Counted from the stretch's first letter, positions 27,476-59,815 are shown. The stretch is DNA of 64,000 nucleotides from Patescibacteria group bacterium (GCA_041665145.1 JBAYJK010000001.1:357629-421628); one strand, 5' to 3'. Notes: a model not told the origin generated them from the sequence alone. Program-made: numbers and translations.

Positions 27476-27548
27476 GCCTGCGTAGCTCAGTTGGTAGAGC
27501 AACGGTATCGTAAACCGTGGGTCGTCGGTTCAACTCCGACCGCAGGCT
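27476..27548 (+). tRNA. tRNA-Thr (anticodon CGT)
   Basis: Hand-folded. Acceptor GCCTGCG/CGCAGGC; anticodon stem ACGGT/ACCGT with loop ATCGTAA; T arm GTCGG-TTCAACT-CCGAC. CCA is not encoded. Confidence 0.93.
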
Positions 27549-27553
27549 CAGAT

Positions 27554-28249
27554 ATGAGACATGCAACACGTTTTAGAAAAACAGTGATAGTTTACGTAGC
27601 CATATTCGTGTTTCTTGTGTATTTGTTTTTTCGGTACGGTCTGCAACTTTTTATTGACACTGCGTTTTACTTATCAGGATCAAAACATAATACGACCGTA
27701 TCAACACAAAGCGGTAAGAATCAGAAATCCTCGATAAACGTCGATCCGATGCTTATGGATGTGCCGCATGCCACGAACGAAGCAACATTAACACTTCAGG
27801 GAAGAGCTAATTCCGGAAGCAAGATATATCTGTATCAGAATAATCAGCGGGTGGATACTACCGTCTCGGACTACGAAGGAAATCTTCAGTTTATCGTTAC
27901 CCTGAATGCAGGAGAAAATGACCTGTATATAAAAAGTATTGACGAAACTACGAAAAAGGGGTCGGATTCACCCGTATATCAGCTTCAATACCTGAATAAG
28001 GAACCGGAGCTGGAAGTCGATGAACCGACAGACGGAAAGCGCGTGTATCAATCAGACATCACGATAAACGGAAAAACAGACCGGGAAGTGTTTGTGACCA
28101 TTAATGGCGCTACTATCGTCGTGAGAGCAGATGGAACTTTTTCGCATCCATTCATGCTACAGAAAGGCGATAATACTCTCAATATAACAGCCGTTGATGT
28201 CGCTGGGAATAAGTCAGAGAGAAGTTTGAAAGTTACTTACGTTCAGTGA
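27554..28249 (+). CDS. Membrane-anchored protein with two Ig-like beta-sandwich repeats
   Basis: TM helix VIVYVAIFVFLVYLFF. Repeats resemble LQGRANSGSKIYLYQNNQRV...GENDLYIKSID and INGKTDREVFVTINGATIVVRADGTF...GDNTLNITAVDVAGN. ATG 27554 is used because the listed start 27491 lies inside tRNA-Thr. Confidence 0.55.
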   Translation: MRHATRFRKTVIVYVAIFVFLVYLFFRYGLQLFIDTAFYLSGSKHNTTVSTQSGKNQKSSINVDPMLMDVPHATNEATLTLQGRANSGSKIYLYQNNQRVDTTVSDYEGNLQFIVTLNAGENDLYIKSIDETTKKGSDSPVYQLQYLNKEPELEVDEPTDGKRVYQSDITINGKTDREVFVTINGATIVVRADGTFSHPFMLQKGDNTLNITAVDVAGNKSERSLKVTYVQ

Positions 28250-36317: not shown

Positions 36318-37349
36318 CTATGCTTCTTTAAGTTTTTCCCCGATAGCCAGAAGCACATAGATAGTCAGTAGTGAAGATCCTCCATAGGATATAAATGGCA
36401 GCGGAACTCCAACCACGGGTAACAGCCTCAGATTCATACCGACATTAAATATAAACTGGATAAGTATAAACGCGAAAATACCGATGTGATAGAGGGTATA
36501 TAGGTCGTTATCTTGCTGCGCCTTAGATTTTTGTAACAGAGAGCGGAGAAATAGAAAGTAAATACCCAGCAGTATCGTATCACCGAATAGTCCGAATGTT
36601 TCCGTGAATGCGGCAAACACGAAATCGGTGTGTGCTTCTGGAAGAAATGATAACTTTGATTGTGAAGAGTGCAAAAATCCTTTCCCAAAAATTCCACCCG
36701 AACCGATTGCTATTTCGGCTTGAAATGAATTGTAATTCACCCCGTATTGATCATACTGCGGGTTCAGAAATGAAATGATCCTGTTTTTTTGATACGTTTT
36801 GAGAAATCGAGGTGCCATAATCACAATCGGCATGGCGAGCAGAAGTAACAGTATCAAATGACGCGCTTTCATTCGGGCAGCTATGAGAACGGCCATGAGA
36901 GTTGCGAATAACACGAGTGCTGTTCCGAGATCCGGTTGCTTGAATACTAGAAAAAGCGGAATGCCAGCAAGAAGCAATATCCGCACAACATTACCAAACT
37001 TCCTGGGTTTCAGAATAGTAAGCAACATAACAAGTGTTAAGAGAAAAAACGGAACAAACATCATGGAAGGTTGTAATCCGAAAGTACCGATAAAAAACCA
37101 CCTGCGTGCACCGCGAGTCATGTCTCCAAAACCCAATAAGATGATAAGGCTTATGAGACCACCGATGCTTAATGGTCTGCTTATGTTCATCAAGAACGTG
37201 GAATCGACGAATGTCGTGATCACAAAATATAGGAAAAGTCCAAATATAACAAAACCCAATTGATACAGCCCTCCTTGAACACTGAAAAGTGATTGGGTAA
37301 GTATGCCGATTACCGAAAGCGAAATGGCAAAGATGAGCGTTTTATTCAC
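36318..37349 (-). CDS. rodA: SEDS-family peptidoglycan glycosyltransferase (RodA-like)
   Basis: PEAHTDFVFAAF and PFISYGGSS motifs; second SEDS paralog in the window. Confidence 0.82.
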   Translation of the reverse strand: MNKTLIFAISLSVIGILTQSLFSVQGGLYQLGFVIFGLFLYFVITTFVDSTFLMNISRPLSIGGLISLIILLGFGDMTRGARRWFFIGTFGLQPSMMFVPFFLLTLVMLLTILKPRKFGNVVRILLLAGIPLFLVFKQPDLGTALVLFATLMAVLIAARMKARHLILLLLLAMPIVIMAPRFLKTYQKNRIISFLNPQYDQYGVNYNSFQAEIAIGSGGIFGKGFLHSSQSKLSFLPEAHTDFVFAAFTETFGLFGDTILLGIYFLFLRSLLQKSKAQQDNDLYTLYHIGIFAFILIQFIFNVGMNLRLLPVVGVPLPFISYGGSSLLTIYVLLAIGEKLKEA

Positions 37350-43462: not shown

Positions 43463-44456
43463 ATTTATGTATCAATCTGAGCCGTTGTTCATAGGCTTTT
43501 ACTATTATAGAATAAAGTGTGTTCTGCTGTTCTTGGTTGTAAATGTATCCGACACCGGCTTTGCTGAGAATTTCCGCGAGCGCTTTTTGTTCACCGTGTG
43601 CAGACCAGGGAAGCGGGATGAGAACGCACGGTGTTAATTTCTGCAGAACCAAAAAAAATGTGTTTGCACCGGATCTTGTAACGAGAATACCGACATGATC
43701 CATGAGATAATCCAGTTCACTCGGGGTGATAAACTCCCTGACTGTATAATCGTGCGACTCCCTTGCACGGAGTCTGCCGAAGTCATGATATATATTATCT
43801 CCGGTTTGGTGTACGACTCGGAATTGTGGGGAAAGTTTGTCAATTATTTCTTCGATGCGTATGTTAACACTATGCGAACCTGAACTTCCACCCAGTACGA
43901 GAAGGAGAGGCTTCTTTGAAGTACTCAACCAAAGAGGCGCGTCCGGCTTTTGTTCTTCGTGATAAATAGGAATTCCGGTATGCACTACTTTCTTTTGTGG
44001 GAAAAATTTCTCTGTTTCCGGAAACGTAATGAATATCTTTTTGGCAAAACGGGCGAGTATTCTGTTTGCAGTCCCCGGAATGATTGTCTGTTCATGTATC
44101 ACTACGGGAATGTGCAAAAGCCAAGCGGCAGTGCATACGGGTATGGACAAATAACTCCCGAATGAAAGCACATACGACGGACGAGTTTTACCGAAGGCAA
44201 TAAGGGATTGGATCACCCCTAAAACCATATCAACACTGTTCTTTAAACCCCGTCCACTCTCTATGTTGTGCCATTTGATGTGTTGGTTCTCACTCAACAT
44301 CCGATACTCAAGGCTCACGTCTTTTTTGTCTGAAAATGCATGTTTACGGCCAAAAAACAGAACACGCTTCCCTGCATCCAATGCTGCGAGTGCACACGTA
44401 TATCCGGGTGCAAAATGCCCGCCTACTATCGCTATTGTCTCCGAATTGTTAGTCAT
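43392..44456 (-). CDS. murG: UDP-GlcNAc:lipid I N-acetylglucosaminyltransferase MurG (GT28)
   Basis: GGHFAPGY N-terminal G-loop, LVLGGSSGSHSVN, dcw cluster context. Confidence 0.85.
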   Translation of the reverse strand: MTNNSETIAIVGGHFAPGYTCALAALDAGKRVLFFGRKHAFSDKKDVSLEYRMLSENQHIKWHNIESGRGLKNSVDMVLGVIQSLIAFGKTRPSYVLSFGSYLSIPVCTAAWLLHIPVVIHEQTIIPGTANRILARFAKKIFITFPETEKFFPQKKVVHTGIPIYHEEQKPDAPLWLSTSKKPLLLVLGGSSGSHSVNIRIEEIIDKLSPQFRVVHQTGDNIYHDFGRLRARESHDYTVREFITPSELDYLMDHVGILVTRSGANTFFLVLQKLTPCVLIPLPWSAHGEQKALAEILSKAGVGYIYNQEQQNTLYSIIVKAYEQRLRLIHKYDTLNTYKKLMVSGRTIIEQAGI

Positions 44457-45550
44457 GCTCTTTTTTGTTGTTGATTTAGAATATTAACAAGAATTCCAAG
44501 CAAAATATAGAACGTCACAAGAGATGAGCCTCCATAGGAAATGAACGGTAACGGAACACCGGTCAACGGAAGCAATTGAACCATAGCTCCAAGATTTATG
44601 AGTGTTTGGAGGCCTATAAGGAATATAATCCCGGAAGCGAGTAAGTATCCCAGGCGGTCACGGATTTCACCAAATCGCTTATATGCGAGATAGAGCAGTG
44701 ACATGTAAGAAACTGCTATGAGGGAAGTTCCTATAAATCCAAAGTTTTCTCCGATAATTGCAAAAATAGAATCAGTATGTGCTTCCGGAAGAAACTGGAA
44801 TTTTTGTCGGGAATTTCCGAATCCCACACCTCCGACACCTCCCAATGAGAGGGCAATATTTATTTGTTTAACGTGGTAACCGATGCCTTGCGGATCGGAA
44901 TCGGGGTTTGCAAAAGTTACAAGGCGTTGAAATCTGTATGGGGAAGAAATAGCAAGGAATCCTACCACAACGAATGCTACCGGAATTATGAACCCGAGGT
45001 GATATAAGGGGGCACCAGAAACAAAGTAAAGAAAAACGGCCATGATGCCGAGTATTACTGCGGTTCCAAGGTCGGGTTGTATCATGACCAGGCCGATAAC
45101 AACGCTTGCGAGAAATAAGAACGCAACAAATCTGCTTCGCTCTTTGAAGGAAAACCATGCGGATAAATAAATTATCAGACTCATTTTAGTTAATTCTGAT
45201 GGTTGGATATTTATAAACCCAATGTGCAGCCAACGCTTTGCACCGAGTGCAGTGGTATACAGTCCGGGAACAAAGACGATCATAAGTAAAAATAGGTTGC
45301 CAAGCAGTATGGGTAACGCAAGGCTGTAAAGTAAATGGTAGTCGAGCATGGAGAAAAAAACGAAGGCAATCATGGCAACGCCAAACCATCTTAATTGGGC
45401 CTTTACAAAGTAAAAGGCATCTCCGTATATACGAATCGCGGAAATAGATGACGCTTCGTAAATCATAAAGATACCGAATATGGTCAGAAGCAATGAAATG
45501 ATCACGAAGGGATGAGTGAACGGTAAGCGAAACAGGGGTTTACGTGCCAT
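44453..45550 (-). CDS. ftsW: SEDS-family protein FtsW
   Basis: PEAHTDSIFA and PFISYGGSS motifs; positioned between murD and murG. Confidence 0.88.
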   Translation of the reverse strand: MARKPLFRLPFTHPFVIISLLLTIFGIFMIYEASSISAIRIYGDAFYFVKAQLRWFGVAMIAFVFFSMLDYHLLYSLALPILLGNLFLLMIVFVPGLYTTALGAKRWLHIGFINIQPSELTKMSLIIYLSAWFSFKERSRFVAFLFLASVVIGLVMIQPDLGTAVILGIMAVFLYFVSGAPLYHLGFIIPVAFVVVGFLAISSPYRFQRLVTFANPDSDPQGIGYHVKQINIALSLGGVGGVGFGNSRQKFQFLPEAHTDSIFAIIGENFGFIGTSLIAVSYMSLLYLAYKRFGEIRDRLGYLLASGIIFLIGLQTLINLGAMVQLLPLTGVPLPFISYGGSSLVTFYILLGILVNILNQQQKRA

Positions 45551-51189: not shown

Positions 51190-51748
51190 ACTTCCACAAC
51201 AAACAAGTGAGCTGGTGGTCCGCATCGCGGACAGGTCCACAAATCCCCTTGAGAGAGCTCGAATTATTCAGGAATTGTTATCGAAACATAACCTCAACAA
51301 AACAGAACTTTCTCGCACATTAGAGAAAAGTCCGAGCTATGTTTCCAATTATCTTCGTTTGTTGGCGTTGCCGGATGTTATTCAAGACGCGATTCTTTCA
51401 AATATTCTATCCGAAGGTCACAGTCGGGCACTTTCTTTTCTTCCTCAGCAATCAGATATGATTTATTTGTTCGAAGAAATCCTACGCCATGGCTATTCTG
51501 TTCGCGCGACAGAGCACTTGGTGGATAAACTTCGTACCTCAAAACGGACATACGGCAAAGTAAGCTCAGAGATAAAAAATGTTGTCGCAGAAATGTCAAA
51601 AGTATTGGAAACCTCTGTAACCGCCCAACGCAAAGAAAAGGAAATTGTGGTGACTATGCGGTTGCCTGCGGGTGTGGTATCACTGAATAAGCTGAATAAA
51701 CTTGCCCAGGTAATTAAAGCTCATTTCCATACTGAGCCGGCGAAATAA
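51161..51748 (+). CDS. ParB/Spo0J-like HTH protein lacking the N-terminal ParB (CTP-binding) domain
   Basis: [30 protein letters not shown] and GHSRAL motif, but only about 30 residues precede the HTH. Start codon is uncertain (TTG 51161, TTG 51182 or GTG 51215); upstream space is fully occupied by rpmA. Confidence 0.62.
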
Positions 51749-52355
51749 TACCCACTCTGTCTACGGGGAAGTATCTGAAGATCACATGACCGATAATATG
51801 CGAGGAGGGGACGAAACCGAACTCCCTTGAGTCTGATGATCCGGGACGATTGTCTCCCATGACGAAGTAATTATCGTCAGGGACCACTACTTCGTTGTCT
51901 TCTTGCAGAAAACCTCCGGGAAATGTATGTGTTTCCATTCCTTCTAAGTAAGATTCTGAAATCTGTTTGCCGTTAATGAACACCGTGCCACCTGAAACGC
52001 GAACATGTTCGCCAGGGAGTCCAATAACACGCTTAATGTAATCGATGTCTGCGTTTGCAGGTGACTGTAATATAATAACCTCCCCACGTTGCGGATTGCG
52101 GAACTTATACGAAATTTTGTCGGTAAGTATGTACTCCTTATCTTTGAAAGTCGGGAACATTGAGCTTCCTTTCACCTGGTGAGGTTGAATGATGAATAAG
52201 TAGAAAACAACAAAGAAAGCACCTCCCAGTGCAATGCTCTGAAGAAAGTCAAAAAACAGATCGACCGTTTTTGCGATTGTGGATCGTGGTACTCCTGTTG
52301 CCGGGGTATCGTCAGGTCGAACCCATACTTGAGAATCAAGTTTAGCGTCACTCAT
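51714..52355 (-). CDS. lepB: Signal peptidase I
   Basis: GSSMFPTF (catalytic Ser), KRVIGLPGE, GDNRPGSSDSREFG boxes. ATG 52355 preferred; TTG 52385 is an alternative. Confidence 0.9.
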   Translation of the reverse strand: MSDAKLDSQVWVRPDDTPATGVPRSTIAKTVDLFFDFLQSIALGGAFFVVFYLFIIQPHQVKGSSMFPTFKDKEYILTDKISYKFRNPQRGEVIILQSPANADIDYIKRVIGLPGEHVRVSGGTVFINGKQISESYLEGMETHTFPGGFLQEDNEVVVPDDNYFVMGDNRPGSSDSREFGFVPSSHIIGHVIFRYFPVDRVGIISPAQYGNEL

Positions 52356-52411
52356 AGTAACCCATACTACTGTATTTTTAATCAAAACTCAAGGATAATT
52401 TGCCGTACCTT

Positions 52412-52447: not shown

Positions 52448-54511
52448 ATGGATTTAATTATCGTTGAGTCTCCGACGAAGGCGCGTACCTTCGGCAAGTT
52501 TCTTGACAAGGACAATTACACAATAACTTCAAGCATGGGTCATGTGAGGGATTTGCCTGAAAAGAAACTCGGCGTTGATGTCGATCATGATTTTGAACCG
52601 GAATATGTCGTAATGCCAAAGAAAAAGAAACTGGTAGACGAATTGGTTACCGCCTCAAGAAAAGCGAAACGCATCATATTAGCGACAGACCCAGACCGTG
52701 AAGGTGAGGCAATAGCGTTTCACATCAGTAAAATTTTACAAGATAAACTTAAGGGTAAAAAGGAATTTATTCGGATTGCGTTTCATGAAATCACTCTTGA
52801 CGCACTTCAGGAGGCTTTAGCCGAACCACGGGAGGTGGATATACGATTATTCGATGCACAACAGGCGCGGAGAATAATTGACCGAGTTGTGGGTTACAAA
52901 GTGTCCCCATATTTATGGAAACGCTTTTCTAAGCGTTGGCTTTCCGCCGGACGGGTACAGACCGTTGCGTTACGACTCATTGTTATGCGGCATAAGGAAC
53001 GTGAAGCGTTTCCGGTATCGGACTATTTTACTTTTAAAGGAATGTTCGATTCGGCGTCACAAGTAATGGAGGCAAAACTGTTGGAGCTTATGGGGCAAAC
53101 CTTTTATCAGAGCACCAAAATTGTCTTGTTTGACGGCGAATATCAGTATCAATTCACGATTGTTAAGGACGAAGTCCAATCGGAAGCAGAGAAATCCCGT
53201 TTACTCAGTGAGGTCTATGTTGTGCAGGATGTAACTGAAAATTCTTCGGTACGCTCTCCCAGTGGGCCGTTTACCACCTCAACTCTTCAACAGTTTGCCT
53301 CAAACAATTTTGGGTACAGTCCGAAACGGACGATGCAAATAGCCCAGAGCCTGTATGAGCAAGGTCTTATAACCTATCATCGTACTGACTCGCTGAATTT
53401 GTCAGAGAAGTTTATATCGGAATGTCGAACATATATCGAAAAAAAATACGGTAAAGACTATGTTGTGTCTGAAGCGCGTAGATATAAAACCAAATCAAAA
53501 CTTGCCCAAGAAGCTCATGAAGCCATTCGTCCCACAGGGCTTAAAAATACTGTTGACGGCGAAACCATCAGTGCTCTTCCCAAGGATCAGATGACGTTGT
53601 ATCGTGCAATTTATAATCGCAGTCTGGCCACTCAGTGTTCCGAAGCAAAAATATTGAAGCAAAAAATTACGATTGTTTCGCAGGCACGCGACTTATTTTT
53701 GGCAGAGGCTGAAGAAGTACTATTTCCCGGATTTCTGATTGTCGACGGGGTTAAGGATAAAGGAAAGGCAAAACCCAGGAAAGTAAGTAAGGGATCATCT
53801 GTCTCACTTAAAGATCTTATTGCGGAGAAAAAAGCAATCCAGCCCCCACCATATTATTCCGAGGCAAGTCTGATCAAAGCCTTGGAGGAAAAGGGTATCG
53901 GGAGGCCTTCTACCTATGCTCCTATTATCTCACTTATTCAGGAACGCCAGTATGTGCGCAAGGAAGTCCGTAACTTGATACCGACTGATCTTGGTATACA
54001 GATTTCGATTATTCTTTCGGAAAAATTCAAAGACCTCTTCAATATTGATTTTACGGCACGGATGGAAGACGAACTTGATCAGGTGGCTCTCGGTGAGAAA
54101 GCATGGCGCGATGTTGTGAGGGGATTTTACGGTCCGCTCGTAAAGGAACTCGACGCAGCCTATACAGATCAGGAAAAAATCAAGGTAGAAGAGAAAACAG
54201 ACGAAAAGTGTCCGACATGCGGTGCTCCTCTGGTAATAAAAATGTCACGATTTGGGAAGTTTTATGCCTGTTCCACGTTTCCGACGTGTAAGTTTACCAA
54301 GAGTTTTCTGCAGTCAGTTGGTGTGAAATGCCCGAAATGTATCGAAGGTAATGTAGTTGTTCGTTTCTCCAAAAAGAAGAGACGGTTTTATGCATGTGAC
54401 CGATATCCTTTGTGTGATTTTACCTCCTTGTGGTTGCCGAAAGCCAAATCGGACTCACCAGATAAAGCCGATGGCCAGGAAGGCAATGCTCCCGAGAATA
54501 AAAATTCCTAA
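52448..54511 (+). CDS. topA: DNA topoisomerase I
   Basis: Toprim LIIVESPTKA and DPDREGEAI; active-site ITYHRTDS; two C-terminal C4 zinc fingers (CPTCGAP...CSTFPTC; CPKC...CDRYPLC). Confidence 0.97.
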   Translation: MDLIIVESPTKARTFGKFLDKDNYTITSSMGHVRDLPEKKLGVDVDHDFEPEYVVMPKKKKLVDELVTASRKAKRIILATDPDREGEAIAFHISKILQDKLKGKKEFIRIAFHEITLDALQEALAEPREVDIRLFDAQQARRIIDRVVGYKVSPYLWKRFSKRWLSAGRVQTVALRLIVMRHKEREAFPVSDYFTFKGMFDSASQVMEAKLLELMGQTFYQSTKIVLFDGEYQYQFTIVKDEVQSEAEKSRLLSEVYVVQDVTENSSVRSPSGPFTTSTLQQFASNNFGYSPKRTMQIAQSLYEQGLITYHRTDSLNLSEKFISECRTYIEKKYGKDYVVSEARRYKTKSKLAQEAHEAIRPTGLKNTVDGETISALPKDQMTLYRAIYNRSLATQCSEAKILKQKITIVSQARDLFLAEAEEVLFPGFLIVDGVKDKGKAKPRKVSKGSSVSLKDLIAEKKAIQPPPYYSEASLIKALEEKGIGRPSTYAPIISLIQERQYVRKEVRNLIPTDLGIQISIILSEKFKDLFNIDFTARMEDELDQVALGEKAWRDVVRGFYGPLVKELDAAYTDQEKIKVEEKTDEKCPTCGAPLVIKMSRFGKFYACSTFPTCKFTKSFLQSVGVKCPKCIEGNVVVRFSKKKRRFYACDRYPLCDFTSLWLPKAKSDSPDKADGQEGNAPENKNS

Positions 54512-55258
54512 ATACCACGGAAATCCCGCCTCAGGAATAACTTGTTGCGTTGCAGCAGGACTTGTGGTTGTGGGTACGGTTGATGGCGATACGACAGACG
54601 GGGATACACCTGCGGAAATCTTTGCAATTAATATGGGAGTTGGGGTCATGGAAGGAATGAATTGACTTGGTATGGTAGAAGGAGTGCTTGTTGCAGCTAT
54701 CCCCGGTTTTTGAGCTTGAGCTTTTACCGTGGGAATCGGTGTCGAAATGGTTTGTGAAGTTGTTGGTATTGTCGTTGGAATCGGGATTGCGGTTACTGTG
54801 GGTATAGTTGTTGTCGGCGATATTTCTAATACGTCAGACGCAGAAGTGTCGGGAGAAGCGGTTCCCGGTGAGGGCAAGCTGTTGAGCGGATCCAATTGAC
54901 TTGTCGGTTGTGGACTATTTGCACGGGGTATTGATGCCAAATTCTGACTGCGAAAAACATACACGATCCCCATTGTTGAAACAAGTACCAATAGCAACAG
55001 TAAAACGGATAGCATTTGGACAATGGGACCATACCTTTTTTTGGCATCTACACTCTGTGGGGAAGTGCTTTTTTTAATCTCGGGAACGACCAATTTTGCC
55101 GGACGAACACCTGCGGTTTGTACTGCCATATTGGGCAATTTGGGGGTAATCTTTTTCCGCCTTTCTTTCAAAAGCAGATGGAGCTGGTATGCAAAAAAAG
55201 CAACGATCAGCAAGAATGTTATTCCGGGGATAACAGGATATTCGGTGAATAGATTCAT
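54455..55258 (-). CDS. Pro/Thr/Ser-rich membrane/surface protein ending in IPEAG + hydrophobic tail
   Basis: Two N-terminal TM helices and a long PT-rich linker. C-terminus is QQVIPEAG followed by FPWYLGIFILGSIAFLAIGFIW. Overlaps the topA 3' end by 57 nt. Confidence 0.5.
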   Translation of the reverse strand: MNLFTEYPVIPGITFLLIVAFFAYQLHLLLKERRKKITPKLPNMAVQTAGVRPAKLVVPEIKKSTSPQSVDAKKRYGPIVQMLSVLLLLLVLVSTMGIVYVFRSQNLASIPRANSPQPTSQLDPLNSLPSPGTASPDTSASDVLEISPTTTIPTVTAIPIPTTIPTTSQTISTPIPTVKAQAQKPGIAATSTPSTIPSQFIPSMTPTPILIAKISAGVSPSVVSPSTVPTTTSPAATQQVIPEAGFPWYLGIFILGSIAFLAIGFIW

Positions 55259-55269
55259 GTAGTTTTATT

Positions 55270-56586
55270 CTAGTATAAAACAAGTAATAAGCCAAGAAGA
55301 CTTAATCCGGATGCTGCAACAATTGCGAATGTATTTACACTTCCCGCACTCGGGAGCCGTTGCACAACAACAGTTGGGGTCGGGAAGACGGGTGCCTCTG
55401 TCGGTAAAACAGTTGGTGTTAGTAGCGTGGGGGTCAGCTGGGTTACGGATATGGCTGGGGTTGCAGTCGGTGCAAACGTAACTGTGGGAGTTAGTGTGGC
55501 TGATCCTGTAGCATCACCAAGAACAGATTCCCCGCTTTTCCCGATCATGAAAGCGACGCTTTGTGTCTGTCCAGTTACTTTACTGGTTACTGAAAGCGTG
55601 TAATTTCCGGGCAACAGAGGCGTTTTGTGTACTAGTTTCCATTCACCATAGCTATTTGTCATTAACACGGCTGAACTTGACGGCGGGTTGAGGGATACCA
55701 TTACCAAACTGCTTGGCTTAGTGATACCTCTGAACACTGGAAACTGTGAAGCGACTGACGTGCCATTTCTCGGAAAAACGATTAGTTGATTCTGAGTTTC
55801 TTGTGTTTGATTGTTTTCACCCAACACTGCATTCGGGTCGGTAAAATCTGCATTCGAGCCGAGGATAACCGATTTCATGGGACCGGCGTCTTTGTAACGT
55901 ACCGTTACGTGTGAGACCAAACCACCTTTTCTGAATGTAACCGACATAATATCCTCTTCTTTCAACGTAATCTGTTGCGTACGGGTGTCTACAATAAGCG
56001 GAAACGTTACGATCCATTCGCCGCCCTGCTTACTGAGTGTCGTGAATGGGGCATATAACTGGTGTTTCTTGGACGTGATGGTGATCAGCACATCCTCAAT
56101 CGGCTGAAGCTTGCTGTTAAGTATTTTACCGAACATTGGAGGGTGGGTCGATTGGGAATTCACTTGAGCAAGAGTTCTGAGAATAATCGGTTTCAGGGCA
56201 TCGTTATACTCTTTTCCGTTAATGACAGGTACGATCAAATATGATGTATTGGGCTTGAGTTGTTCAAGTGTGATGTAGTGAACATTTCGGGCGGTTGGAG
56301 CTGAATTATCACGATCATCAAACCGAACCATATCGAGATTATTCTCGGTGCCGTACTTCAGGAAAACCGTTGCTTTTTGTGATGTGGTAAATGAAATGGT
56401 GCCGGCAGAGTCGGTAACGTTCCCAAATTGCATGTTGGAGGGCGAAACTGTAAGAGAAGCTTTGGAAGTGTACGAAGTTCGACCGGACGTGAAGACGAAG
56501 CCTACGCCGAAAAGCATAAAAACAATGAGGGTGTATGCAAGGACACTCGATATTTTTTTTGGCTGGTATAAAAAGTAATAACTCAT
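55270..56586 (-). CDS. Surface protein with FN3-like and Ig-like domains, PT-rich stalk and LPSAG + hydrophobic C-terminal tail
   Basis: N-terminal signal anchor; FN3/purple-acid-phosphatase-N-like segment (GNVTDSAGTISFTTSQKATVFLKYG...LKPNTSY); Ig-like segment (LLPGNYTLSVTS). C-terminus is QRLPSAG followed by SVNTFAIVAASGLSLLGLLLVLY. Confidence 0.55.
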   Translation of the reverse strand: MSYYFLYQPKKISSVLAYTLIVFMLFGVGFVFTSGRTSYTSKASLTVSPSNMQFGNVTDSAGTISFTTSQKATVFLKYGTENNLDMVRFDDRDNSAPTARNVHYITLEQLKPNTSYLIVPVINGKEYNDALKPIILRTLAQVNSQSTHPPMFGKILNSKLQPIEDVLITITSKKHQLYAPFTTLSKQGGEWIVTFPLIVDTRTQQITLKEEDIMSVTFRKGGLVSHVTVRYKDAGPMKSVILGSNADFTDPNAVLGENNQTQETQNQLIVFPRNGTSVASQFPVFRGITKPSSLVMVSLNPPSSSAVLMTNSYGEWKLVHKTPLLPGNYTLSVTSKVTGQTQSVAFMIGKSGESVLGDATGSATLTPTVTFAPTATPAISVTQLTPTLLTPTVLPTEAPVFPTPTVVVQRLPSAGSVNTFAIVAASGLSLLGLLLVLY

Positions 56587-56777
56587 TTTCGTTGCTCCAA
56601 TTTTTTCAATAAATCGATTCCCACTAATGGTTTGATGACTACCGTTGAGCTTTTTTGATAATCAACCACGAAATTCGTATTATTCTGAATATGATACAAA
56701 TCGACAACAATCCACGCAATTACCGTCATCATAATAACGAGTGACAGTATAAATAGCTCTTTATTTTTTGAATACAT
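56583..56777 (-). CDS. Small single-pass membrane protein (64 aa) in the PilN/PilO-like operon
   Basis: ATG 56777 lies 1 nt after the PilO-like stop. Its own stop overlaps the next start as ATGA. TM helix LFILSLVIMMTVIAWIVV. Confidence 0.4.
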   Translation of the reverse strand: MYSKNKELFILSLVIMMTVIAWIVVDLYHIQNNTNFVVDYQKSSTVVIKPLVGIDLLKKLEQRK

Positions 56778-56778
56778 G

Positions 56779-57336
56779 TTATTTGTCAACGAAATAGTAA
56801 CTGTTCACCGTCGCGCTAAATCGTAATTCGGCACTTGAACTGGTGCTTTCCCCCTGTCCCAAATCGATACTTTTCATATAGAAAAGTCGCGGAGAAATAT
56901 ACAAATTGCGAGCATAATCTATCAGGTCTTTATATGAAGCTTTACCGCCGAGATTGATGGGGATGACGACAAGCCCTTGTGCTGCAACTGGCTTGAGTTG
57001 GATTTCCGCAAGTCCGAACGTACTTAGTTGCATTCTCTGATCGAGTAATACATCCATATCCTGAAGGTTGAGGGATGCCGGAATTGCGAGATCGATGAGT
57101 TCTTTTTTACTGAGCAGGCGCATGTAGTCTGCCTGAAGTGTAATGATTTGCTGGATTTTTGCTTCAAGATCCGTATTTACTTTTGTGTACAGTGTTTTTT
57201 CATGAAATAACGTCAATATGAGTGCAAGGGATGGGCGCACGGCAAAAAAACCAAAGAAAGCTATCGTCAGTAACGTGAATGCCAGTGTTTGATAGTCACG
57301 TATTGATCGCTGTGTTTTCTTTTTGGACTCTCTCAT
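56779..57336 (-). CDS. PilO-like pilus-assembly (alignment complex) protein
   Basis: Short cytoplasmic N-terminus, one TM helix, coiled coil, then alpha/beta domain. Architecture and motif (IDLAIPASLNLQDMDVLL) resemble PilO. No sequence search was done. Confidence 0.5.
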   Translation of the reverse strand: MRESKKKTQRSIRDYQTLAFTLLTIAFFGFFAVRPSLALILTLFHEKTLYTKVNTDLEAKIQQIITLQADYMRLLSKKELIDLAIPASLNLQDMDVLLDQRMQLSTFGLAEIQLKPVAAQGLVVIPINLGGKASYKDLIDYARNLYISPRLFYMKSIDLGQGESTSSSAELRFSATVNSYYFVDK

Positions 57337-57338
57337 GG

Positions 57339-57854
57339 TTATTTCACGGACAAATCAAACGAATATATGTTTTTTTCTTTACTCACTCTATCAATAGTTA
57401 CTGATCCAAGCTTTATTTTTTGCAGACGAAGCTGCAGGCGTTTAATATCAACTGACTCGAACGTGTGACCTGAAACCGTTAACCCTTTCGCTCCGATAAC
57501 AACATGATCAAGAGTAACCGACTGGGGAATATTCTTCAACGTAGCCGTGAGCAGCTGGTACTGACGAACGGTTTGGTCGACAAGGCCGTTCATCAGTTCC
57601 ATTTTTTGAGACAATTGCGTGCTGTTATTGATCATGGGAATGGCAGCCAATATTATCTGGTTTTTCTGGTCAATACTTTCCTTCAGATCAATGATCGATT
57701 GATCAAGTACTATCTTGATAAAAAAGACTGATAAAACAACAAGCTGGGTTATTATAATAATATACTTTGCGTAGGTATTGAAAAACAATACAGCATCTGC
57801 AATAAAAGAACCCCCCTTCTTATGGAAAAGGTTAAACCTGAAGTTTTTAGCCAT
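57339..57854 (-). CDS. PilN-like pilus-assembly protein
   Basis: N-terminal FRFNLF (INLLP-like) peptide, TM helix, coiled coil, C-terminal ferredoxin-like region (VTLDHVVIGAKGLTVSGHT). Start is 57854 or 57869; either overlaps the rpsT 3' end. Confidence 0.5.
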   Translation of the reverse strand: MAKNFRFNLFHKKGGSFIADAVLFFNTYAKYIIIITQLVVLSVFFIKIVLDQSIIDLKESIDQKNQIILAAIPMINNSTQLSQKMELMNGLVDQTVRQYQLLTATLKNIPQSVTLDHVVIGAKGLTVSGHTFESVDIKRLQLRLQKIKLGSVTIDRVSKEKNIYSFDLSVK

Positions 57855-58092
57855 TTTTACCTTTGACACGCTTACCGAGCTTGGACTTTAAGCGGGCAGC
57901 AGTGTTTTTGTGCAATATTCCTTTTTTGACAGACTTATCAACTAGAGAAAAAGCTTTCTGCAACAATTCTTTGGTACCTTTCGCTACAAATGCAGTAACA
58001 GCTTCCCGGTACTTTTTCTTGTACGCGCTGTTTAATACTCGCTTCTTCTTGTCTTGGCGCAATTTCTTTTTTGCGGATGTAATATTTGGCAT
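57847..58092 (-). CDS. rpsT: 30S ribosomal protein S20 (bS20)
   Basis: MPNITSAKKKLRQDKKKRVLN...HKNTAARLKSKL. ATG 58092 preferred over the listed 58161. TATAAA lies 6 nt upstream. Confidence 0.92.
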   Translation of the reverse strand: MPNITSAKKKLRQDKKKRVLNSAYKKKYREAVTAFVAKGTKELLQKAFSLVDKSVKKGILHKNTAARLKSKLGKRVKGKNG

Positions 58093-58135
58093 GAAACCTT
58101 TATAATAACTGGTAATTAATACTAAAATTATACTC

Positions 58136-59815
58136 ATGATGACACGTGTTTGGCAAGGCATAAAAAAGCTCTACCAGGGAAAACAGGCGACTTTGTATAC
58201 ATCTACCATCGTTGTTGCCCTTACTTTGCTCTTGGTGAGGTTGATAGGGGTTGTCAAACTGAGAATATTGACCGGCTATTTCAACAAAAGCCAGTTGGAT
58301 ATATTCTTTGCCGCCTTCAGATTACCGGATTTCGTTTTTGAGATTATGGTTGCGGGATCGATCGGAGCTTGTTTTATACCGATGATCAGCGACCTTTTAT
58401 CAAAAAAAGGTACTGCCCGAAAAGAAATAATGGAGTTTACCCAGGCTTTGTCGGTAATTTTTTTGGCGGTGTGGGGAATTCTGTTTATATGTATGCTTCC
58501 TTTTTTTCCCCAGATAATTAGATTTATGTTACCGGGCTATAGTGCGAGTGAGGTGACACTCGTTAGTACGATCTCATTGTGGATACTTTTTTTCCAAGTA
58601 CCGTTTCTGCTTGTCGGAAACCTTGCATCGACAGTGCTCCAGGCCGAGAAGCAGTTTATGATTCCGGGGCTCGCCCCTTTTTTCTATAATGTGGGAATTA
58701 TTTTCGGTGTAGTTTTATGGTCACAAAGCGCCGGATTATATGCAGCACTTTACGGAGTTATTTTGGGTGCAGTTATGTATGTGTTGATTCTCATTCCCGG
58801 ATTATGGTGGTTCGGGTATCGATTTGTTCCCAAAATAACGCTTGTCAGTGTACGAATCAGACAATTTTTTAAGCTTTTTTTCCCCCGAATGTTCAGCTCG
58901 CTCGTATCTCAGATTGATGCGACGGTTGATTTATCGCTTGCGTCTCTCAGCGGACTTGGTAGTTACTCATCGTTTTATCTTGCACGTAGCCTACAGCTTC
59001 TGCCGGTCAGTTTTTTGGGGATTGCACTTTCTGAAACTGCCTTGCCATTTTTTACGGATGTGAAAAATGAAGGAAACACCGGAAGGCTGCTTGACATGAG
59101 TATCAGATTAATCGCACAGATATTTTTTATCATGGGGCCGATAATAATTGCATTTACCGTTCTCAGGATTCCACTGACCCGGTTGGTATTCGGAGGAGAT
59201 AAATTTGACTGGACGCAGACTGTTCAAACTGCCCAGATCCTCTCCGTGTTTGCCCTATCTCTGCCGTTTCATACTGTCTATTACATAATTACCCGTGTGT
59301 TTTTTGCGCTCGAAGATACACGCACCCCGTTTGTTACCGGTGCGCTATGTACCGCGCTTAATACGGCTCTCAGTATCGTGTTTATCGTGGTCCTCAAGCT
59401 CCCCGTATGGTATTTGGCGCTGGCGTTCGGTGTTTCCATGACGATTAATTCAACGGTGCTGTTCTATATTTTGCTGAAACGCCTTGATCATGTGAGACTG
59501 TTACCTTTCTTAGTACGAATCACTGCAATTTTGATAGTAACTGTTGTTACCGGGGCAATTGTGCTCATGGTACGGAAAGTGCTTGACGGGTTGATATTTG
59601 ATACGACACGGACAATAAATCTTTTCTTTCTCAGTTCATTCTGTGTTTTGGTTGAAGGGCTTGTGTATATGTATCTTTCTTGGGTAATTATTCCGAGCGA
59701 ACTGTCGGAAACGCTCAGTTTGTTAACCCGATTATCAATTGTTAAAAAAACTGTCTCGAAGTATAGACAGATGTTTATACCCGCTCAGAACCTGAGCGAA
59801 GAGGAGAAAATATAA
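58136..59815 (+). CDS. murJ: Lipid II flippase MurJ (MviN)
   Basis: 559 aa, about 14 TM helices. N-terminal pattern LLVRLIGVVKLRILTGYF...FFAAFRLPDF is typical of MurJ. Confidence 0.88.
   Translation: MMTRVWQGIKKLYQGKQATLYTSTIVVALTLLLVRLIGVVKLRILTGYFNKSQLDIFFAAFRLPDFVFEIMVAGSIGACFIPMISDLLSKKGTARKEIMEFTQALSVIFLAVWGILFICMLPFFPQIIRFMLPGYSASEVTLVSTISLWILFFQVPFLLVGNLASTVLQAEKQFMIPGLAPFFYNVGIIFGVVLWSQSAGLYAALYGVILGAVMYVLILIPGLWWFGYRFVPKITLVSVRIRQFFKLFFPRMFSSLVSQIDATVDLSLASLSGLGSYSSFYLARSLQLLPVSFLGIALSETALPFFTDVKNEGNTGRLLDMSIRLIAQIFFIMGPIIIAFTVLRIPLTRLVFGGDKFDWTQTVQTAQILSVFALSLPFHTVYYIITRVFFALEDTRTPFVTGALCTALNTALSIVFIVVLKLPVWYLALAFGVSMTINSTVLFYILLKRLDHVRLLPFLVRITAILIVTVVTGAIVLMVRKVLDGLIFDTTRTINLFFLSSFCVLVEGLVYMYLSWVIIPSELSETLSLLTRLSIVKKTVSKYRQMFIPAQNLSEEEKI

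Follow-up and report, generated by a model that had tools for sequence, protein, structure and literature searches.

Organization of the two surface protein genes

In the 64,000-nucleotide (nt) stretch of DNA from a Patescibacteria group bacterium that was analyzed here (GCA_041665145.1, JBAYJK010000001.1:357629-421628; hereafter, the window), two adjacent genes on the minus strand encode proteins that end with a short [LI]PxAG motif followed by an uninterrupted run of hydrophobic residues, an arrangement resembling the C-terminal sorting signals of sortase substrates. The two proteins, which are designated fam1 (438 amino acids, aa) and fam2 (267 aa) together with their orthologs, possess the following features.

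55270..56586, minus strand: fam1, secreted protein of 438 aa; three FN3/Ig-like domains of the beta-sandwich type, a Pro/Thr (PT)-rich stalk and a C-terminal tail resembling a sorting signal
56458..56586, minus strand: fam1 N-terminal signal sequence (residues 1–43), with conserved MSYYFLYQPKK, a 22-residue hydrophobic core and S-K-A as a putative signal peptidase I site
55357..55530, minus strand: fam1 Pro/Thr-rich disordered stalk (residues 353–410), 41% P+T, predicted local distance difference test (pLDDT) score <50
55342..55356, minus strand: fam1 LPSAG pentapeptide (residues 411–415), the LPXTG equivalent; P412 and G415 invariant in close orthologs
55273..55341, minus strand: fam1 terminal hydrophobic helix, 23 uncharged residues without a basic tail (open reading frame (ORF) with a true stop; helix 416–437 in the model)
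54455..55258, minus strand: fam2, 267 aa; two transmembrane (TM) segments at the N-terminus, then a conserved P-R-A, a PT-rich region of 128 residues and a tail resembling a sorting signal
54920–54928, minus strand: fam2 conserved P-R-A site (sequence comparison)
54524..54538, minus strand: fam2 IPEAG pentapeptide (residues 241–245), the LPXTG equivalent, with a series of ortholog motifs at the same site
54458..54523, minus strand: fam2 terminal hydrophobic segment, 22 uncharged residues without a basic tail (ORF, true stop)

According to the ORF translations, fam1 terminates as ...PTPTVVVQR-LPSAG-SVNTFAIVAASGLSLLGLLLVLY and fam2 as ...SPAATQQV-IPEAG-FPWYLGIFILGSIAFLAIGFIW, each directly followed by a stop codon, so that the last residues are ...LVLY and ...GFIW, respectively. 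Recomputation reproduced the coordinates that an earlier note on this DNA had given for the two motifs (LPSAG at nt 55342–55356 and IPEAG at nt 54524–54538) as well as the 23 and 22 hydrophobic residues up to the stop, and in both proteins the hydrophobic segment begins right after the motif. The Pro/Thr-rich stalk said to precede each motif was also recovered (41% P+T upstream of the motif in fam1, 38% in fam2); in the alignment of fam1 homologs, neither its sequence nor its length is conserved. Neither fam1 nor fam2 possesses a positively charged C-terminal tail, in agreement with the same note, since the stops are genuine and no in-frame basic continuation exists. An artifact of stop-codon read-through or recoding was rejected as a cause of the missing tail, because TAA, TAG and TGA all occur as stops in the orthologs, again without an in-frame basic continuation.

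In the AlphaFold2 model of fam1 (mean pLDDT 71), an N-terminal helix (residues 14–34) is followed by beta-sandwich domains at 48–140, 145–245 and 270–350, a disordered region at 353–415 and a terminal helix at 416–437 that begins directly after the Gly of the motif. Pfam matches were weak only (Pur_ac_phosph_N/fn3 and Big_13), and a Foldseek search of PDB with the model returned nothing beyond generic FN3/Ig triples. The protein corresponds to WC775_01685 (387 residues identical), which is labeled “hypothetical protein” at NCBI. No homology between fam1 and fam2 was detectable (BLASTP E = 0.63), and, as the similarity is not significant, an origin of fam2 by duplication of the C-terminal part of fam1 was ruled out on the same result.

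By inspection of the sequences, both proteins carry an N-terminal Sec signal as expected of sortase substrates, with a KK n-region in fam1 and a second TM segment followed by P-R-A in fam2. A43 of fam1 is invariant in 11 of 11 aligned homologs, and M1–L6, K10, A17, Y18 and I21 are invariant in the eight closest; S-K-A43 is the putative cleavage site of signal peptidase I. The tripartite architecture typical of sortase substrates that had been noted earlier (N-terminal signal sequence, stalk, short motif and terminal hydrophobic helix) is thus present in both proteins. As separate observations, an x-R/K-A site is conserved in both fam1 and fam2 approximately 8–10 residues past the TM segment; the N-terminus of fam1 (MSYYFLY..KKIPS..LAY) is nearly invariant in close orthologs, which is unusual for a signal peptide; and a type I signal peptidase gene (Peptidase_S26; 51714–52385) lies two genes away, a placement that is syntenic in the related loci L002 and L042.

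Conservation of the motif among orthologs

Orthologs were collected from the protein database, from GTDB genomes (31 loci), from JGI metagenomes (14 loci) and by a profile search of 1.84 billion representative sequences. The GTDB locus search was seeded with a stretch conserved in the eight closest sequences, the 11-sequence alignment containing none. The whole-family profile search returned 14,849 matches and was swamped by giant Ig-repeat adhesins of other phyla, the C-termini of which are of unrelated types (T1SS, MYXO-CTERM and actinobacterial LPXTG); approximately 30 single-stretch, full-length orthologs were useful. The relatives of fam1 are found in metagenome-assembled genomes labeled Roizmanbacteria, Gottesmanbacteria, Woesebacteria and Microgenomates. 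Many GTDB records that bear the genes (L008, L009, L014–L016, L018, L021–L023, L026, L033, L035 and L037; binchicken/SRP co-assemblies) are titled “uncultured Gammaproteobacteria bacterium”; these titles look like placeholder mislabels, as gene content and synteny indicate Microgenomates.

At the site of LPSAG, fam1 orthologs with Thr at position 4 carry LPKTG, LPQTG, LPATG, LPVTG, LPPTG, IPTTG, IPITG, IPSTG, PPVTG or PPATG, and those with another residue at this position carry PPTSG, LPKSG, LPGSG, IPRSG, IPSAG, IPVAG, IPELG, IPQLG, IPSLG or IPIVG. At the site of IPEAG, fam2 orthologs possess IPEAG, LPETG, IPKTG, IPSTG, IPETG, LPQSG, LPKSG, MPKSG, LPQAG, IPQAG or IPVVG. In 52 of 61 distinct fam1 tails, the last hydrophobic segment begins precisely at an xPxxG motif, with T (22), S (14), L (6), A (5), P (4) or V (1) at position 4. 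Deep-branching fam1 members retain the full canonical signal, for example P0095 (LPPTG...FFFVSRRVNS) and P0149 (LPATG...VLSRGIPL). In the sub-clade that includes the window, P and G are invariant in 15 of 15 sequences and position 1 is I or L (0.57 bits of entropy), with 1.9–2.8 bits at the flanking and inner positions; position 4 is T, S, A, L or V, and the basic tail is absent. Furthermore, the distance from the motif to the stop, 22–24 residues, is common to fam1 and fam2 despite the BLASTP E value of 0.63. The motif is thus conserved in the orthologs, and its core is [LI]PxxG and not [LI]PxAG, with Ala as one of several residues (T, S, A, L and V) at position 4.

Taken in order, the tails of one orthologous family form a graded series, as read from the aligned sequences: LPXTG with a helix and a basic tail, then tail-less LPXTG or PPxTG, and then tail-less [IL]-P-x-x-G. 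Relative to the canonical signal, the sub-clade of the window has, by this comparison, lost the basic tail and relaxed position 4 from T/S to T/S/A/L/V, with [IL], P and G remaining fixed.

The two tails could in principle be ordinary TM helices at the C-terminus that resemble each other by chance, as short motifs of this kind do arise beside TM helices. When all six frames of the window were searched for [LIVMFA]P.[ATSG][GASN] no more than 45 residues from a C-terminus, fam1 and fam2 were the sole proteins with an all-hydrophobic tail after the motif. Two FtsW/RodA (SEDS) proteins in the window, at 44453–45550 and 36318–37349 on the minus strand, have LPLTG and LPVVG close to the C-terminus, with hydrophobic residues behind the motif. 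These are false positives of pattern-only LPXTG scans, since the motifs lie inside the last TM region, and in the FtsW protein a charged tail follows. In the eight closest fam1 orthologs, P412 and G415 are invariant amid a PT linker that is not conserved, and because of this, together with the 52 of 61 tails with xPxxG at the start of the helix, the motif goes beyond chance. For both proteins, dozens of orthologs in Roizman-, Gottesman- and Woesebacteria conserve the motif and its spacing, and the chance explanation, which we regard as hardly credible, is refuted by this conservation.

Position 4 was also compared between the two proteins of one genome. The fam1/fam2 pair is A/A in the window and in L041, V/A in L044, L/V in L002, L009 and L048, and T/T in L007, L008, L045 and L046, with L/T in L042 and L047 as exceptions. 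The tendency of a residue other than T or S to co-occur in both proteins is suggestive in these few, phylogenetically dependent genomes; a hand count over all genomes gave a 2×2 table of approximately 4/3/2/9, which is not significant, the genomes being phylogenetically non-independent.

Comparison with curated sorting-signal models and known systems

The NCBIfam model TIGR01167 (LPXTG_anchor; length 34, cut-off 15.9 bits) was used to scan the tails alone. The LPQTG tail of an ortholog passed with 18.1 bits, and the LPSAG tail of the window (13.9 bits, E = 0.067) and an IPTTG tail (13.6 bits) scored below the cut-off. All of the alignments fall within positions 1–28 of the model, that of the LPSAG tail covering positions 2–26; since they stop at position 28 of 34, only the basic tail is missing. 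The full-length window proteins matched no sorting-domain model of NCBIfam. The strict LPXTG pentapeptide is present in orthologs as LPKTG, LPQTG, LPETG and LPATG, and the window proteins deviate from it by Ala at position 4 in both and by Ile at position 1 in fam2.

In their signal sequence, PT stalk, Pro at position 2, Gly at position 5 and approximately 23 hydrophobic residues, fam1 and fam2 are similar to LPXTG-anchored proteins (TIGR01167; the substrates of class A/E/F housekeeping sortases). The window tails differ from these in the missing positive tail, Ala at position 4 and the sub-threshold score, position 1 is often Ile or Pro across the family, and no sortase was found in the accessible DNA. 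The replacement of Thr by Ala at position 4, as in LPSAG, also occurs in Staphylococcus aureus, for which two LPxAG surface proteins are listed beside 19 LPxTG proteins (PMC3436756). The organism, the protein families and the sortase are, however, unrelated to fam1 and fam2. The staphylococcal LPxAG proteins keep a charged tail. Residues other than Leu at position 1 are found among the putative substrates of Clostridium difficile SrtB, which carry (S/P)PxTG, including PPKTG, in addition to NVQTG (PMC5569036), and the motifs of class B sortases have been given as (N/S/P)PXTG (PMC8225981). In the same manner, fam1 orthologs possess PPVTG, PPATG and PPTSG, and the variable Pro position of NVQTG has counterparts in their IQQTG and LLKTG. 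Unlike the sub-clade tails, the class B substrates retain Thr and the charged tail.

On these grounds, the earlier statement that the tails fit no class could not be upheld: orthologs carry LPKTG, LPQTG, LPETG, LPATG and IPTTG at the same site, one tail passes LPXTG_anchor and that with LPSAG is 2 bits short of it, LPxAG is known in S. aureus (PMC3436756), and PPxTG and NVQTG stand in the C. difficile SrtB list (PMC5569036). Judged by the sequences of their orthologs, the tails are a lineage-specific Microgenomates variant of the LPXTG signal and not a new sorting class, because the same orthologous site carries canonical LPXTG-type motifs.

A separate sorting class would be involved if [IL]PxxG and the helix were read by a different enzyme, such as an exosortase/archaeosortase-like, rhomboid/rhombosortase-like or otherwise unknown enzyme of the candidate phyla radiation (CPR). 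This explanation could account for the lack of a charged tail, the variable position 4, the failure of every curated model to exceed its threshold on the window proteins and the lack of a sortase in the loci searched. Nevertheless, the motif grades continuously into canonical LPXTG with a basic tail within the same orthologous family, and the only sorting-domain models matched were of the sortase type, namely EF0750_LPXTG and Microco_LAVTG in addition to LPXTG_anchor. No model for PEP-CTERM, PGF-CTERM, VPXXXP-CTERM, IPTL-CTERM and the like matched the full proteins or the tails at E <= 10, and there is no Arg-rich tail; the window proteins also show no GG motif, basic tail or model match indicative of GlyGly-CTERM and rhombosortase. 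In addition to the lack of PEP, PGF and GlyGly motifs, no multi-TM exosortase-like gene was present among the annotated neighbors in the window or in the gene cassette that contains fam1 and fam2 (described below). With regard to pilin substrates of class C sortases, the sequences of fam1 and fam2 contain no YPK, and no cassette contains a sortase. Considering both sides, a separate enzyme is improbable.

Search for a sortase

As the earlier note had reported, no sortase-like gene is present in the window, neither by Pfam on the called genes nor by extra scans. The search was extended 6.5–10 kb past each end of the window (L038 and L039; approximately 20 kb), so that approximately 84 kb of the 919-kb genome was covered, and to ±10 kb around approximately 45 orthologous cassettes (0.9 Mb, all ORFs). 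It consisted of phmmer with an S. aureus SrtA query and a regular expression for TLxTC-type active sites; no sortase was found, and the matches were spurious only, such as ribosomal protein L2 and EamA. Published surveys place a sortase family in over half of the CPR genomes and describe it as “near ubiquitous in Microgenomates” (PMC6744442), and one closed Microgenomates genome encodes a sortase (PMC7143001). The window itself encodes MurJ, FtsW, MurG, MraY and MurD of the peptidoglycan pathway, on which a sortase depends; by these genes, the organism makes peptidoglycan.

Dedicated systems in which one sortase serves few substrates are known, such as the proteobacterial “marine” sortase, which has a single LP[QK]TG target and is encoded adjacent to it (TIGRFAMs descriptions). 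The present case is similar in that the genome is small and one or two conserved proteins, in place of a large adhesin repertoire, are visible as substrates, and it differs in that no sortase lies within ±10 kb of the approximately 45 fam1/fam2 loci.

The DNA directly upstream of window position 1 (L039 1–6000; approximately 10 kb) contains five ORFs of 204–443 aa without a Pfam match or signal peptides. Behind this block lie genes for a regulator of the Crp family and for a thioredoxin/DsbA-like protein with a membrane anchor; the latter may belong to an MdbA-like family that is enriched in the CPR (PMC6744442).

Proposed anchoring pathway

From the sequence features described above, we consider it probable, with moderate confidence, that both tails are derived sortase signals and that the enzyme reading them is a housekeeping sortase, the gene of which is unlinked and lies elsewhere in the genome. 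In the proposed pathway, each precursor would be exported by Sec, and signal peptidase I would then remove the N-terminal signal at the conserved x-R/K-A site. The terminal helix could keep the C-terminus in the membrane, with [LI]PxxG positioned just outside. Next, the housekeeping sortase would cut before the invariant Gly and join the Pro/Thr-rich stalk to lipid II/peptidoglycan. The strongest support for this reading is the continuity with canonical signals in the orthologous family, together with the near- and above-threshold matches to LPXTG_anchor. Purifying selection on exactly [IL], P and G in two proteins without detectable homology also argues for it, as does, at a suggestive level, the co-occurrence of residues other than T or S at position 4 of both proteins. 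The architecture of fam1 is substrate-like: a signal sequence with an invariant Ala at the putative cleavage site precedes the beta-sandwich domains and the disordered PT stalk, and the helix begins right after Gly.

Several observations weigh against a sortase signal. The most unusual feature of the tails is the missing basic tail: K or R after the helix is absent in 46 of 61 fam1 tails and in all fam2 tails. The IPEAG and IPELG tails, scanned alone, gave no LPXTG_anchor match, and Pro is missing in a few orthologs (IQQTG, LLKTG, IAATG and TLVAG). The signal was seen on two protein families only; a profile of 46 tails, lengthened to 40 residues, found nothing at E <= 10 among 5.8 billion sequences, for which size such a profile is too weak. 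No sortase was found in any of the DNA searched. Leu or Val at the scissile position, as in IPELG, IPQLG and IPVVG, is without a precedent known to us, and none was found in the literature either for these residues at position 4 or for the total lack of a charged tail. In model systems, the charged tail helps to retain the precursor for the sortase (PMC5569036). In the same study, C. difficile substrates were not anchored when their hydrophobic domains were weak and their tails short, which suggests that such features can prevent anchoring (PMC5569036). Moreover, conservation is much stronger in the terminal helix of fam1 than in the ectodomains, with A425, S426, S429, L430, G432, L433, L435 and Y438 invariant at 37–61% overall identity. 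This exceeds the need of a disposable stop-transfer segment, and the N-terminal signal region is similarly conserved; the conservation of both regions is left unexplained by anchoring through a sortase. The small residues of the helix, which are spaced 3–4 apart, suggest helix–helix packing.

As the main alternative, the tail could be a relic, a segment descended from LPXTG that is no longer cleaved in the sub-clade and serves as a plain membrane anchor, packing against the TM helices of PilN, PilO and a 68-aa protein encoded in the same cassette, with IPxxG as a structural cap or hinge where the helix meets the membrane surface. The loss of both the basic tail and the Thr at the scissile position, the invariance of A425, S426, S429, L430, G432 and Y438 along the helix in close orthologs and in the sub-clade, the equally good conservation of the N-terminal TM region, the lack of a sortase near any cassette and the neighboring genes for single-pass membrane proteins of the pilus platform are all in line with such an anchor. 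It is, however, at odds with the fixation of [IL], P and G in two proteins without detectable homology while positions 3 and 4 drift, a pattern that suits a recognition motif better than a hinge. A G-rich, fairly conserved hydrophobic region is also found within the generic LPXTG_anchor model (aligned by the tail at positions 2–26), a stable type I anchor normally possesses cytoplasmic positive charges, of which the sub-clade tails have none, and the PT stalk of 58–128 residues resembles a wall-spanning spacer. On balance, an uncleaved anchor is less likely than a sortase signal.

Association with the pilN–pilO cassette

The genes of fam1 and fam2 belong to an operon-like cassette that extends over 54455–58161 on the minus strand of the window and is divergent from murJ. 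In every related contig examined, the order is murJ (opposite strand); rpsT (S20), PilN-like, PilO-like, small TM protein, fam1 and (fam2); and topA. The same order is seen in L002, L005, L006, L040–L042, L057 and the GTDB/JGI loci. In the window, the genes upstream of fam1 are as follows.

57339..57869, minus strand: PilN-like protein, 176 aa; BLASTP E = 2e-11 to the L005 ortholog, same position in all syntenic loci
56779..57336, minus strand: PilO-like protein, 185 aa; Pfam PilO 19.2 bits (E = 0.0014), under the cut-off of 22
56583..56789, minus strand: small single-TM protein, 68 aa; position conserved, no family match

The identity of PilN and PilO was established through positional orthologs that exceed the Pfam gathering scores: the PilN ortholog in L005 scored 38.7 bits (gathering score 22.8), and the positional PilO orthologs scored 30.3, 35.5 and 52.7 bits, above the cut-off of 22. 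A TM protein of 64–134 aa occupies the slot of the small protein in L002, L005, L006, L040–L042 and L057. fam1 is widespread; fam2 occurs in a narrower set of lineages and always lies directly downstream of fam1, save for an insert in some lineages. In several lineages, a third conserved protein of approximately 220 aa, absent from the window, stands between the two; it ends with ...IEAQLHSxEDGWLG and lacks a hydrophobic tail.

L012 9020–9673; L013 11286–11963; L015 11305–11979; L018 8901–9569; L029 3090–3752; L030 11152–11829: inserted protein of approximately 220 aa

Also, the 3' end of fam2 (minus strand) overlaps the 3' end of the convergent topA (plus strand, 52448–54511) by 57 nt (54455–54511), as is likewise the case in L002 and L042. 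Another likely surface protein of the window, 252 aa in length (27491–28249, plus strand), adjoins an O-antigen/polysaccharide cluster (Wzy_C, glycosyltransferases and a flippase) and possesses a C-terminal Ig domain of the Glucodextran_B/Big_6/Big_13 type (Pfam E = 6e-20), without a sorting-signal-like tail.

The cassette is similar to the genes of the PilMNOPQ alignment complex in that pilN and pilO are followed by genes for further envelope proteins. In contrast to that complex, it contains no homologs of PilM, PilP and PilQ, and the downstream genes encode FN3/Ig and PT-rich proteins with sortase-type tails; pilM, pilB/C/T and pilin genes do not adjoin the cassette. A functional analogy to PilMNOPQ is a matter of speculation. 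A link to the CPR “Pam” pili, which assemble by donor-strand exchange (bioRxiv 10.64898/2026.03.03.709456), was considered and rejected, as the context differs (ATP synthase neighborhood and chaperone-like genes) and there is no sign of relatedness. By its synteny, the cassette may represent an accessory module of the type IV pilus platform with a link to the wall, and fam1 and fam2 would most likely be accessory or surface components that are anchored in the wall and associated with this platform.

A more specific proposal is that the specificity of a Microgenomates sortase has drifted from LPxT-G to [IL]Pxx-G, that this enzyme needs no charged retention tail, and that its conserved substrates are the two proteins of the pilN–pilO cassette, which, once joined to peptidoglycan, would connect membrane and wall as part of the type IV pilus machine. 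In such a cell, PilP and PilQ would be lacking because there is no outer membrane. We hold this combination to be unlikely.

Implications for surface proteins of Microgenomates

The tails of the window escape every curated model scanned, being below the threshold of LPXTG_anchor or without a match. From the comparison of orthologs, a Microgenomates-type signal can be defined in usable form as [LIP]-P-x-[TSALV]-G, then 22–24 hydrophobic residues and a stop; this definition could improve the prediction of the surface proteome for a large uncultured group. The current understanding of sorting is not overturned by a tail-less LPXTG variant. As its members all belong to one orthologous family, the graded series amounts to a natural experiment on the elements that sortases require in the signal. 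The linkage to pilN and pilO is the most interesting loose end and hints at a wall-anchored pilus accessory. If the drift of the sortase proved true, it would entail a relaxed residue at the scissile site and a previously undescribed wall-anchored pilus accessory module.

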